From IMG/VR virus record IMGVR_UViG_2939521961_000003: 50,213 nt of DNA. One strand, written 5' to 3'. Positions 6,001 to 12,000 of the stretch are shown here, piece after piece. Origin of the DNA: a virus. Taxonomy: Duplodnaviria; Heunggongvirae; Uroviricota; Caudoviricetes. Numbering within the stretch: the stretch's first letter is position 1; the number at the start of each line of letters is the position of its first letter. A program made the position numbers.

Positions 6001-9000
6001 TCGCGTTCTTCTTTCTCTGCAAGCCATATACAATGGCGAAATTCCTTTTCCTCTTTCGTTTCCTGCGGTAGCGACATTATCCGATCGTAGTTTTTTCTGA
6101 ATTTATCCAGCACCTCCGATACGGAATTGCCGGAACAGCGGCGCGCGTCATCCGCACCATACAGAGGCGCTGGCATAATTAAATCCTTATTTTTCTAAAT
6201 CAGAATGGGATGGAATCGTCGTATACAGGAGTGTTCTGCTGGTTACTACTTTGCTGCTGCGGGCCATTTCCTGAAGCTGCAAATCCAATCTTTGCATTCA
6301 GTAATTCAAGAGTGATTGATTGACCATTTTGCCCCTGATAAACATCAACCCTGATGTTTTCTCCGGTAATTTCCACAATGCCACCTTCAACAAGAACACT
6401 ACGGTAGTAATCCGCTTGCGCTCCCGGCTTGGCAAATACAACGGCGCTGTAGTTTGTCCATTCTTTCTTTTTTGTCTGGCGATCGTAATACTGAACGCCA
6501 GCACGGATGTTGAATCCGATATTTTCCCCGGTCTGAAACTCTCTTGCGGGCTTGTTTAGTCTTACAGTAATCGAATGTGCCATTAAGCAGCAGCTCCTTC
6601 TAATTCGTCTCGTCTGATGTTGTAAACGTCCTGCGCTTTGTGCTGCTCCGGTGTGCCTTCGAGCATCTTCCACGCTTTGGCGAACGCCTGTTTAAGCTCT
6701 TCTACGGTGTTTTTCTGCATTGCTGCGTCAGTGAATGCTTTTAGAACCTGTTCAGGTGTAGGTGATGGTTTTGATTGCTTTGCTGCTGCGTTCTGCTGAT
6801 GTTTATGCTCGTCGGTATCTGCATCTTTCGCATCATCAATGCCGAATAAACCATTGAGGCAATACTTGCGTGCATAAGAGCTTGTAGCTCCCGTAACTTG
6901 TGCAGAATCCATTCCTTTCTTGCTTTCTTCCTCTCGTGCAAGAGCGGTTGCCGTATGACTGTTTTCGCCATCGGTAATAGTTGCCGTGGCTTTCACATAA
7001 TACCGATCACCAATCAACACAACTTCATCGCTGATTGATAAAAACAGGCCATTCAGTAACGGCTTAACGCCTTCAAGAATATCTTCGCAGCTTCTGTATT
7101 TATATTTGCCGAATGAGTTGTACTGATTCTTTGGCGCGTTCAGATTCTCCTGAATAGCTGCCAGTCTTGCGTAAAATTCTTTGCTCATATGATTGTTCTC
7201 AGAATGGACACGGCCCAAGGAAATAACGCTGATTTAATACTTCGACTCGGGACAAATTAAGGCATACCCGCATTCCTTCGCGGTCACCATTATGGCGATA
7301 CCAGAGAGCTTTCTGCGTGTACATGCGCCTCTGTAACTTGCTCTCCTTCACTGTGGTTGCAAGTGACATGAATATCTCCTTCGTTACCGATTAATTCTTT
7401 CATCTGACGAATGAATTCTTCGTCTGACCAGTTATCTGTAAAACTCATTTCCTGCGATAACACGGAAGGTTGATAGCTGATTTCATCGCTTTATTTGCTT
7501 CAAGCCACATTTTTGAATCACCAATAAATCGGGCTATTACTGCCTTGTTCTGTGCAGCACGAAGCATCTGGTGATTGATGGCTATTTCATTGCGCATAAT
7601 AAGACCTCAACTCTTTTCCATCCGTCACGTAATTTACGGGTGATTCGTTCAAGTAAAGATTCATTTAATTGGAAGGCACCCATGCGAGCGCCTCCCGCGA
7701 TTGCGTAAATCATGGGTGGTTCCTTATGTTGGTTTTATTAGTAGGTTATTTTTGTTGCGAATAATTCGCCTTTTACGATGGCTGTTATGATATTTTTAGC
7801 AACATCTTCTGATGCGCCAACCTTGATAAGGTCAGCAAGTATTTTGTTATTTACTTCTTTCCGGTGAGCTTTATCCTTTGCTCTACGCTCTTCTTCGTCC
7901 TTGATTCTTTTTTCTTCTGCTATTCTGGCTTGCTCTTTTGCTTCAGCCTCGCGCAGGATTCGTTCTGCCTCCTCCTGTGCTTTACGGCGTTCTGCTTCAA
8001 TTGCCGCATGCTTTTCTCTTTCAGCTCGTTCTGCTGCCTCTTTTGCTTCGCGCTGTGCTCGTTGCTCGGCTTCAATGCGTTCACGCTCTGCACGTTCCTC
8101 TGCGGCCTTAGCTTCTGCTTCTCGCCTTGCTGCTGCTTCAATTTCGGCTTTTGCCTTTGCTTCGGCTTCAGCTCTGGCTTTCTCTTCAGCTTCTCTTTTT
8201 AAGCGTTCTTCATGCTCTCGCTTTTCCTGCTCCGCTTTGAGTCTTGCCTCTTCTCTTTGGCGGTCAAATTCGCGATCCATCAAAATCGCTATTTCATGGT
8301 CAGACTCAATTTGCTTTGCGAGAGCTTCAGCTGCTGCCTTAGCTTCTTCTTCGGCTTTAATCCGCGCCTGTTCTTCCTCATAATCAGTAAGAGGCTGGCG
8401 CGCCTTGGCTTTCAGTTCATCAAGGCGATCGCGCACTGTCTTGCGGTTAGCATCAATTAGCTTTGGAATTTCCTTCAGTTCAGCAACAAGGTCTTTGCCA
8501 AGACCATCGAGATATGTTTTCGTCTGCGCAACTTTATACGCCAGATAAGCGATCTCCTTTCTGCCCTTTGCCGTTGTGATATCAGGCACAAAGGACATAA
8601 CTTCACGTTCAACCTTTTGAAGAATTTCTTCAATCTGGTCGGCAGACTAAATTACAGTCATTGCATTTGCTTTTTCAATAACAACTAAATCTGTTACTTC
8701 ACTCATATATCCTCCGTCAAAAAAATTGCCCTCACACTGGAGGGCAAAGAAGATTTCCAATAATCAGAACAAGTCGGCTCCTGTTTAGTTACGAGCGACA
8801 TTGCTCCGTGTATTCACTCGTTGGAATGAATACACAGTGCAGTGTTTATTCGTATGCCTGTCTTTTAACCACATCAGGCTCGGTGGTTCTCGTGTACCCC
8901 TACAGCGAGAAATCGGATAAACTCTATTCACCCCTACAGAGAGAATGATGGAGATTCACCGATGAGTAACTGGTGGCAGGAACTATTACGTTTCTTCCTG

Positions 9001-12000
9001 CGTGGTCTTACGCTACAACAGTTAATTCATATGCTTATTATTTTAATTGCCTTGATAATAATCACCCCAGCATCAATTAAAGAGTGGGTAGATATAAGGA
9101 ACCCCGAAATACTTCCAGATCACTGGATGTATTACGCAATGCTTTTGTGTATCAGTTATGTTCTGAACAGGGGGATTGAACCGCCCCGGGTTTCCTGGAG
9201 AGTATTTTATCTGTGAACTCAGGCTGCCAGATCATTATTTCCGATGGAAGCATAATAAGCTTTTTCTGCTTCTGCCGGAGGAATATGGCCCAGCCTTTCC
9301 AGCAATCGTCGATTGTTATACCAGTCCACCCACGTTAGTGTGGCCAGTTCCACTTCTGTCCGGTTTTTCCAGCTATTACGGTGTATTACCTCCGCTTTGT
9401 AAAGACCATTGATGCTCTCAGCCATCGCGTTGTCATACGAGTCGCCAGTACTCCCTGTTGATGCCAGTAATCCGGCTTCCTTAAGCCGCTGCGTGTAGGC
9501 CAGCGATACATACTGAGAACCTTTATCACTGTGATGGATTGTGCCGGACGGCCGACGGGCCCACAACGCCTGCTCCAGTGCATCCAGCACGAATGTTGTT
9601 TCCATGGATGATGAGACCTGCCATCCCACGATGTATCCGGCGAACACATCAATGATGAACGCCACATAAACGAAGCCCTGCCATGTGCTTACCCAGGTAA
9701 AATCAGCCACCCACAACTGGTCTGGACGTTCTGCCACGAACTGACGGTTTACGCGGTCGCATGCGGCAACGGCTTTCCGGCTGACGGTAGTGCGGACCTT
9801 TTTACCCCGGAGAACACCGGCAAGTCCCATAACTGCCATGAGACGTGCCACAGTGCATCTGGCCACTCTGATACCTTCCCGTAACAACTGACGCCAGACT
9901 TTACGCACACCGTATACCTGGTGATTTTCATCGTATACGCGCTGTATCTCTTTCTTCAGCCAGTCATCGTGCTGCGCACGGGCACTGCGTTTATCCGGAT
10001 GATGTCGCTGTTGCTGACAATGGTAATACGTTGACGGGGCAATATGCAGTTCGCTGCATACCGGTCCGACCCCGTACTGCTCACGCAGCTTATCCAGCAG
10101 TGGCATCATTTTTTCCAGAGGCGGTCGAACTCCGCCTTCGCAAAATAAGCGGAAGCCTGGCGAAGGATATCGTTACTGCGGCGCAGTTCACGATTTTCAC
10201 GTTCCAGCTCTTTCAGACGCTGACGTTCAGCACTGGTGAGCCCACCATCACCGCCCCCGGTATCCCGCTCATGCTGGCGAACCCAGACACGCAGAGTCTC
10301 CGGCGTACAGCCAATCTTTGGGGCAATGGAACAAATTGCCGCCCACTGTGAGTCATATTCATCCTGACTTTCCAGAACCATACGAATCGCCCGCTGACGG
10401 ACTTCGGGGGAAAAACGAGTATTTTTAGTCATCCTGTTTACCTCTTTCTCAGGGAGTTTAGTCTCCAGGATTTCCGGGGCGGTTCACACCACGCAGTTCG
10501 TCAGGCAAAGAGAAAGGCCAATATGACATACATGAAGGCGTATCAAAAAGCATGGAAAGAACACCGCGATCGATACCAACAAGACATGGAAAAGCTTGAA
10601 TCAGAAAACATGGAATTAAGACGAAAGCTCGGTGAAGCAAAACGAGACATTGATGCTTACAAGCGACTTTTTAATGGTGAAAGCCATGCTTAGCCCATCC
10701 CAATCCCTTCAATACCAGAAAGAAAGCGTCGAGCGAGCTTTAACGTGCGCTAACTGCGGTCAGAAGCTGCATGTGCTGGAAGTTCACGTGTGTGAGTACT
10801 GCTGCGCAGAACTGATGAGCGATCCGAATAGCTCAATGTACGAGGAAGAAGACGATGAATGAGTTAATAAATGGCAATGCCATCAAAATGACAAGCATTG
10901 AAATAGCTGAGTTGGTGGGTAAGCGTCATGACAATGTGAAACGTACCATCGAAACGCTGGCTAAAAATGGTGTTATCCGGCTTCCTCAAATTGAGGTTTC
11001 CGAAAGAATCAATAACTTAGGGTTCAATGTTCAGTACGAGCATTACGTCTTCGAGGGCGAACAAGGTAAGCGAGACAGTATTGTCGTTGTTGCCCAGTTG
11101 TCGCCAGAGTTCACCGCTCGTCTTGTTGACCGTTGGCGAGAGCTTGAAGAAACTGCGGTTAATATCCCCAAAACGTTACCGGAAGCGTTGCGCCTTGCTG
11201 CTGATCTTGCTGAGCAGAAAATGCAACTGGAAAACCAGCTCGCAATTGCCGCACCTAAAGTTGAGTTTGCCGATCGCGTTGGCGAGGCCAGCGGAATTTT
11301 GATTGGAAACTTTGCAAAGGTTGTTGGTATTGGTCCAAACAAACTGTTTGCGTGGATGCGCGATCACAAAATCCTTATTGCTTCAGGTTCCCGGCGCAAT
11401 GTGCCAATGCAGGAATATATGGATCGCGGCTATTTCACAGTGAAAGAAACAGCGGTCAACACAAATCACGGAATACAGATATCGTTCACCACAAAAATCA
11501 CCGGGCGTGGTCAACAGTGGCTGACCAGAAAGCTGCTCGATAACGGAATGCTGAAAGTAACAGGGGAGGCTGCTTAATGGCTAACCTACGCAAAGAATCT
11601 CGCGGCAGAGAATGCCAGGTACGTATTTACGGCATATGCAATGGCAATCCTGAAACTACAGTTCTGGCACATTACCGGATGGCTGGAATTTGCGGAACGG
11701 GAATGAAGCCTGACGACCTGATCGGCGCATGGGCTTGTAGCGCGTGTCACGATGAAATCGACCGACGCACCCATAACCTCGACAACAAAGACGCCAGACT
11801 TTACCACCTCGAAGGCGTGATCAGGACGCAGGCGATACTGCTGAAGGAGGGGAAGATTAAGTCATGAACGAATATCAGTTTGTGCTTCCATACCCGCCGT
11901 CGGTGAATACCTACTGGCGAAGACGGGGAAGCCAATACTACATCAGCGATAAAGGCCAGAAATACCGAAAAGACGTTCAGCAAATCATCCACCAACTCAA

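Follow-up and report, generated by a model that had tools for sequence, protein, structure and literature searches.

IS629, an insertion sequence (IS), is held responsible for many deletions in enterohaemorrhagic Escherichia coli (EHEC) (PMC9943667). In prophages of EHEC O157, IS629 polymorphism reportedly includes insertions with 3-bp repeats, adjacent deletions that retain the element, small-footprint excisions and a multitude of alleles of one locus per clone (Ooka et al. 2009; Kusumoto et al. 2011; both cited in PMC9943667). A model of strand transfer to sites besides the opposite end of the element is credited to Kusumoto et al. 2011 in a preprint (bioRxiv 10.1101/2023.06.07.543989). Adjacent deletions of various lengths are made by IS3-family elements (PMC8860574), and in those of IS3 one end reportedly stays on the original flank, the other lies precisely on new sequence of the same side and the IS is kept (Sekine et al. 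1994; PMC8860574). Here the same element was analyzed at an EHEC lambdoid prophage locus, positions 8600-10862 of a 50,213-nucleotide stretch of DNA (IMG/VR record IMGVR_UViG_2939521961_000003; the window). This stretch represents a lambda-like prophage of E. coli O26, with its integration site beside ybhC. All of the outcomes named for O157 recur at this locus. In contrast to the O157 cases, the host is O26 and the prophage is a different one; here one deletion ends 4 bp away from another IS629 copy, which is inverted.

Lambda-type remnants without immunity, replication and head genes are also represented by the cryptic K-12 prophages (DLP12, Rac, Qin) and by defective effector prophages of EHEC. 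The window remnant keeps int and xis, both intact, together with part of the nin region, Q, lysis genes, tail genes and cargo (lpxR, nleH, cif and espJ). Unlike in those prophages, its intermediate alleles survive in sister strains, so that the order of the losses can be read. According to these alleles, two or more distinct IS629-associated deletions took away immunity and replication. With about an even chance of being right, the window is read as an effector-carrying lambda-like O26 prophage that has come far in a stepwise decay driven by IS629.

A preliminary description, made from the window alone, had proposed that the immunity and replication core was missing from 8600-10862. This was confirmed. 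No repressor, Cro, O or P profile match was obtained among the open reading frames (ORFs) of 8600-10862 by Pfam search, and all of these genes are found at the same place in O26 strain 07_3636. Outside the IS, the 577 + 376 bp of the interval are fully accounted for by collinear flanks known from relatives. This leaves no space for repressor or replication genes, and a functional lambdoid immunity and replication core is absent from 8600-10862. The alignment with related prophages that the description had called for was run, and the 07_3636 core was identified as the normal content between the two flanks.

The element in the interval (9177-10486, minus strand; ISb below) is a complete IS629 of 1310 bp, named from 99.8% identity over the full 1310 bp to the annotated IS629 of phage BP-4795 (AJ556162.1). 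Its 25-bp ends are the right inverted repeat (IRR, 9177-9201) and the left inverted repeat (IRL, 10462-10486). The terminal repeats are TGAACCGCCCCGGGTTTCCTGGAGA and, as the reverse complement of the other end, TGAACCGCCCCGGAAATCCTGGAGA; they match at 22 of 25 positions and form the imperfect inverted repeats, starting with TG and ending with CA, that are expected of IS629. Both transposase frames lie on the minus strand: orfA (10106-10432, 108 residues; Pfam HTH_Tnp_1, E=2.4e-12) and orfB (9219-10109, 296 residues, with the DDE catalytic domain; Pfam rve, E=2.4e-26, and HTH_21). They are linked by a programmed -1 frameshift, also annotated by RefSeq, whose signal is an ALIL pseudoknot at 10035-10151 on the minus strand (Rfam RF01497, 121.5 bits against a gathering score of 50). 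ISb looks intact and potentially active.

The flanks of the window copy read ...cagggggat-IS-caccacgcag.... With the ends defined precisely, neither a 3-bp nor a 4-bp target duplication was found at these flanks (GAT versus CAC), as the preliminary description had reported. The same ISb copy is bordered by CAC on both sides in 11368, 6629 and 94_0962, and other IS629 copies are bordered by TTC/TTC or CTT/CTT. The element therefore normally makes 3-bp repeats, and the missing duplication in the window is secondary and no argument against its assignment to IS629. In strain 7_26_9A, ISb carries 21 clustered substitutions within 240 bp (13160-13397; window equivalent 9597-9834) and is otherwise identical; the cluster suggests gene conversion of this patch by an IS629 copy that had diverged.

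In 07_3636 the locus has the order sieB, N, two small ORFs, cI (LexA-type), the cro-position gene, cII, O, P, ren, an orf, ninB, ninE, a 133-residue ORF and ninF, and its core was confirmed by Pfam matches to N_peptide, Peptidase_S24, Phage_CII, Phage_rep_O and Phage_lambda_P. A near-untouched core was found in 07_3636 and seven others among the matches listed (the best 10 of 28). In the 07_3636 type, sieB is itself broken by another variant of IS629, which is 97.9% identical and is flanked by a CTT duplication. When the window flanks were placed on the 07_3636 locus (L009), the left flank corresponded to 1-1631 and the right flank to 9655 onward; the left flank agrees up to ...AACAGGGGGAT, and the right flank begins with CACCACGCAG inside the 133-residue ORF. 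The window thus lacks 8,023 bp of the 07_3636 sequence, equal to 6,710 bp of phage DNA after the IS of 07_3636 and its duplication are subtracted.

To the left of the IS, the membrane-protein gene fragment noted in the preliminary description proved to be the N-terminus of SieB. It consists of the first 72 codons of the superinfection exclusion gene sieB (8962-9176, plus strand; Pfam SieB, E=2.3e-8) and is 69% identical to P22 SieB over residues 2-69 (tblastn). The last bases, ...AGGGGGAT, run directly into the IS; sieB of 07_3636 goes on as GGAGTTTATATTT.... Full-length SieB (PF14163, ∼140-190 residues) is not encoded, profile positions 2-49 of 147 being covered, and the 72-codon stub compares with at least 133 codons in 07_3636, itself IS-interrupted. 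Phage records were also searched at the DNA level for an intact sieB; the match to the window allele ended near 9041 by divergence, not by deletion, and the O26 strain 07_3636 rather than the phage records was used as the source of the intact allele.

To the right of the IS, the 68-codon 3′ gene end of the preliminary description was likewise upheld. These are the last 68 codons of the 133-residue ORF that normally lies between ninE and ninF (10487-10693, plus strand); their translation is the C-terminus of WP_000924601.1 of 07_3636, it is coiled-coil-like, and its Pfam matches are sub-threshold only. The stop overlaps the ninF start at 10687. The first three bases (10487-10489) are the right-hand CAC of the 3-bp target duplication from the original ISb insertion, as judged from 11368, the common form described below and 07_3636, in which the empty ISb site reads aaaaaccaccacgcag. 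The observation that the two flanking frames cannot be joined was correct, and it has no bearing on the deletion, since each frame comes from a different gene and the genes are unrelated.

The commonest O26 form of the locus (6629, 94_0962) carries two identical IS629 copies, ISa and ISb, in inverted orientation. The ISa junctions read sieB′...gggggatGGAG-IRL-ISa-IRR-GCGTGATGTTGATCG...(′cII), followed by ′cII, O, P, ren, an orf, ninB, ninE and the 5′ part of the ORF, and the ISb junctions, in the common form and in 11368, read ...aaaaaccac-IRR-ISb-IRL-caccacgcag.... The sieB′-IRL joint was counted in ∼20 genomes, obtained as 28 matches of at least 80% coverage less 8 two-piece matches of 224 bits; these 8, at the top of the best 10 of the 28, were assumed to be all of the 07_3636-type genomes. 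ISa has no duplication (GAG versus GCG) and stands in place of 3,075 bp that hold the 3′ end of sieB, N, cI, cro and the first 30 nucleotides of cII. ISb entered the ORF that separates ninE from ninF by simple insertion and duplicated CAC there. In the common form O is already frameshifted by the loss of ∼50 bp between the ori iterons (07_3636 6730-6779 versus ∼11062-11077 of the common-form record, L007), so the replication module was dead before its deletion in the window lineage.

On either side of the deletion the window is identical to 94_0962, for 7,000 bp on the left and for 2,800 bp on the right. The only difference there is that 4,879 bp are gone from the window: the bases GGAG of sieB, the 1,310 bp of ISa and a segment of 3,565 bp with ′cII, the damaged O/ori, P, ren, an orf, ninB, ninE and the 5′ part of the ORF. 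The surviving IS has the orientation and the right flank of ISb, and its IRR tip is now joined to GGGGGAT. At this left joint (GGGGGAT-TGAACC...) the right end of the deletion is the terminal nucleotide of the IS, and the left breakpoint lies 4 bp outside the former position of the ISa IRL. No microhomology was found at the joint on comparison with the common form, the two deletion ends sharing no bases. A 2301-bp stretch with the joint was 100% identical in 3 of 5,426 genomes (NIID080884, War and OY754853), each of them complete; an assembly artefact was ruled out, as the three were assembled independently.

Because the joint lies exactly at the IS terminus and has no microhomology, transposase chemistry is preferred to repeat-mediated loss; such a joint is the signature of transposase strand transfer, not of slippage or end joining. 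Two further features of an IS-adjacent deletion are present as well. A parental allele with the same IS and its duplication exists (CAC/CAC in 11368 and in the common form), and in the window one flank is unchanged and the other begins at the exact IS tip. The other IS-adjacent deletions at the locus, in 93_0495 and PV0838, count in the same direction. An origin by IEE-assisted end joining after transposase cleavage, a model put forward for deletions linked to IS629 excision in EHEC, is considered very improbable on this evidence, as that model predicts loss of the IS and microhomology, and the window joint keeps the IS and has none. IEE-dependent deletions of a few nucleotides to >40 kb next to IS629 are ascribed to Kusumoto 2011 in one report (PMC9943667), and excision footprints consistent with such activity do occur at this locus, in the 11368 type and in RM8426, where the IS was lost with microhomology or a small footprint.

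The following order of events is proposed. By comparison with 07_3636, a first step placed ISa between sieB codon ∼74 and cII nucleotide 31 without a target duplication, removing the 3,075 bp with the 3′ end of sieB, N, cI, cro and the 5′ end of cII. By comparison with the empty site, ISb inserted, inverted, in the small ORF between ninE and ninF with duplication of CAC. In a third step, of which the product is seen, the IRR tip of ISb was joined to sieB′ 4 bp outside the ISa IRL with loss of 4,879 bp, probably by a transposase-catalysed IS-adjacent deletion. The 3′-OH of the ISb IRR would have been moved to a leftward site on the same strand and not beside its own IRL, the ISa end probably drew the transposase complex to the spot 4 bp outside, and the deletion would have been fixed by replication. 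The result is one intact IS629 with the old flank CAC and the new flank GAT, in a remnant without repressor, early promoters, N or replication functions. The IS-associated deletion of the core suggested in the preliminary description therefore stands as far as the association with IS629 goes, the absent duplication being its trace; it does not stand as a single event, at least two steps being needed. The window IS was also not responsible for the loss of immunity. ISa removed that region, and ISb began as an ordinary CAC insertion.

For the third step it is tentatively suggested, with somewhat less than even confidence, that a transposase complex on one IS629 end captured the end of the other copy as its target, removing that copy and everything between. 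If this were true and general, any two neighbouring IS629 copies would mark a deletion hot spot whose place and endpoints could be foreseen, in any relative orientation and without RecA. The joint may be likened to the targeted insertion of IS911 at inverted repeats, in that transposase would have made a joint only a few bp away from a terminal repeat of the same element already in place; in orientation and in strand, the window joint does not match a head-to-tail targeted insertion. Such insertion of IS911 was reportedly described by Loot and colleagues in 2002 and by Rousseau and colleagues in 2008 (both listed in PMC2909936). The IS3 deletions come from plasmid experiments; the window holds a natural allele deduced by comparison, in which transposase may have acted.

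Several points weigh against the one-step reading of the third step. The chemistry of the third step cannot be seen in the sequence. In canonical copy-out, the strand attacked beside the IRL is the strand that carries the 3′ end of the partner. ISa and ISb are inverted, so the window joint needs an attack on the opposite strand at 4 nucleotides, not 3; on both counts a simple circle-formation reaction with the wrong partner is not an exact fit. A hybrid origin of the surviving IS is also possible, as the ten IS629 copies compared for chimerism, from the window and six relatives, were all identical.

The identity of the copies bears on a route by homologous recombination. A third IS629 would have inserted at GAT, a few bp from the ISa IRL and in the ISb orientation, and recombination with ISb across 1310-bp direct repeats would have deleted the DNA between; the near-palindrome formed with ISa might have stimulated it. 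IS3-family elements are known to insert beside their own ends, targeted insertion of IS911 at inverted repeats is reported in work that PMC2909936 cites, the exact product would result (GAT on the left, CAC on the right, one IS in the ISb orientation), recombination between identical copies would be traceless, and recombination between IS629 copies is evident here from the PV0838 inversion. This route, the main rival, is nevertheless judged rather unlikely, since it requires one event more than the one-step model and no intermediate was found. In the common form the copies are inverted and the ISa end is 4 bp off, so direct copies do not stand at both breakpoints of the parental allele. The sieB′...GAT-IRR joint occurs in only the three genomes named above, all with the full deletion, and no direct copy at GAT with the intervening DNA kept was found among the 5,426 genomes, although such an intermediate may have been lost.

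A last point against the one-step reading is that neither single-nucleotide polymorphisms (SNPs) nor an IS600 marker separate an ISa-bearing parent from a parent of the 11368 type, in which a TG microhomology marks the loss of ISa and of 6 bp of cII. From such a parent, with ISa already excised, an ISb-adjacent deletion would have ended 4 bp from the scar by chance or at a hot spot. The 11368-type junction, sieB′...GGAG-TGTTGATCG, exists in 11 genomes, and the left flank of the window agrees with it up to GGGGGAT. With several kb of possible targets, a deletion would be expected to end this close to the old ISa position, only a few bp away, by chance in an estimated ∼1 in 1000 cases, the other adjacent deletions here have scattered ends and no hot-spot motif was identified at the locus; a parent of this type is thus regarded as improbable. 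The IS600 copy between erf and kil is present in only some 11368-type genomes and is elsewhere positioned in 6629. A shared SNP at window position 17454 is derived in 93_0495 and PV0838 and ancestral in all others compared, and the remaining differences across the prophage are recombination patches.

At least seven alleles of the locus persist in sister strains, and they indicate that IS629 has repeatedly inserted, been excised, inverted and caused deletions here within one clone. Besides those already described, 93_0495 has a deletion from the ISa IRR into ren, and PV0838 has an inversion between ISa and ISb together with a deletion from an IRL into the tolA-like gene. In RM8426 ISb is gone, one CAC is left compared with two in the empty site, and the tolA-like gene has received a new IS629 flanked by duplicated TTC. 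The ORF between ninE and ninF in this strain (17758-18156, against 9460-9861 in 07_3636) has one CAC codon (His) instead of two, and RM8426 otherwise resembles the ISb-bearing strains. The single CAC looks like the footprint of an excision in which the IS went together with its duplication and a further CAC. RM8426 was also considered as a carrier of the left joint of the window and was rejected; the match consisted of two pieces joined out of order, and its IS629 sits in the tolA-like gene.

As judged from its gene content, the remnant is without repressor, operators, pL/pR, N, cII, O, P and ori. With the repressor, operators, early promoters, replication genes and head genes gone, we infer that self-driven induction, replication and packaging should be impossible; the suggestion of the preliminary description that the prophage cannot be induced is thus reasonable. 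Since the remnant would not induce, replicate or be packaged, its cargo (lpxR, nleH, cif and espJ) would be fixed in the chromosome. The behaviour of IS629 described here is already known from EHEC prophages, and of IS3-family elements in general, and represents an ordinary, well-documented route of decay; RefSeq already labels the flanking genes as partial. Beyond bookkeeping, the locus matters little, as a base-resolved example of IS629 dismantling and immobilising an effector prophage in EHEC O26. Mild interest attaches only to the 4-bp distance between the breakpoint and the end of the second copy, a small mechanistic hint. The allelic series could serve as a fine-scale typing marker, and the locus forms a natural data set on adjacent deletions, inversions and excisions by IS3-family elements.

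The left-hand context of the interval is a tolA-like coiled-coil gene of the pL operon (7738-8706, minus strand), a pseudogene with an internal stop according to the RefSeq annotation of strain War and the ORF list. It is the same in relatives and gave no Pfam match in the search of the interval ORFs. Between it and sieB′, a strong terminator-like hairpin followed by a T run was located at 8726-8747 (minus strand) by consensus match only. It has an 8-pair stem with 5 GC pairs and the tail TTTTTTT, and resembles a tL-type terminator of the leftward operon. Readthrough from the transposase gene of the IS toward the tolA-like gene, cIII and kil would run into this hairpin. On the right, ninF (10687-10862, plus strand; Pfam NinF, E=3.3e-12) was assigned the lambda-type ATG at 10687; the RefSeq start is earlier, at 10653. 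The first complete gene in the retained nin region is a Rha/KilAC antirepressor-type gene (10855-11577, plus strand; Pfam ANT, E=7.7e-33, and Phage_pRha), which is followed by DUF1364, rusA and ninH. Further right, 12408-13582 holds a 72-nucleotide antiterminator stub, lpxR (lipid A deacylase) on the opposite strand, ylcG and a complete Q; here lpxR looks like a cargo insertion in the nin-Q region.

Head genes are also gone from the window prophage, by an ISEc22-associated loss. In the region 25390-28344, ISEc22 (IS66 family; tnpA, tnpB and the transposase gene at 25644-27979) has a truncated S49 head protease gene on one side and a truncated tail-U gene on the other, and the head maturation, decoration, capsid and head-tail genes are absent at this site. 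The arrangement is identical in 7_26_9A, 93_0495 and War. The War prophage equals the window minus one IS600 and differs from it at 2 SNPs (13793 and 31826). The IS600 copy at 47803-49066 is not in War; the copy at 40784-42047, which interrupts a tail-fibre C-terminal gene, is present in War and missing from both 7_26_9A and 93_0495. At its right end (42212-44144 and 49264-49917) the prophage carries nleH, cif and espJ, which are type III effector genes, with ISCro1 (45114-47729) and tail-fibre fragments scattered among them. The tail genes of 93_0495 differ from those of the window by three clusters of substitutions (window equivalents 33625-33725, 36628-36867 and 39602-39743), which look like recombination tracts from other lambdoid prophages and not like point mutation.

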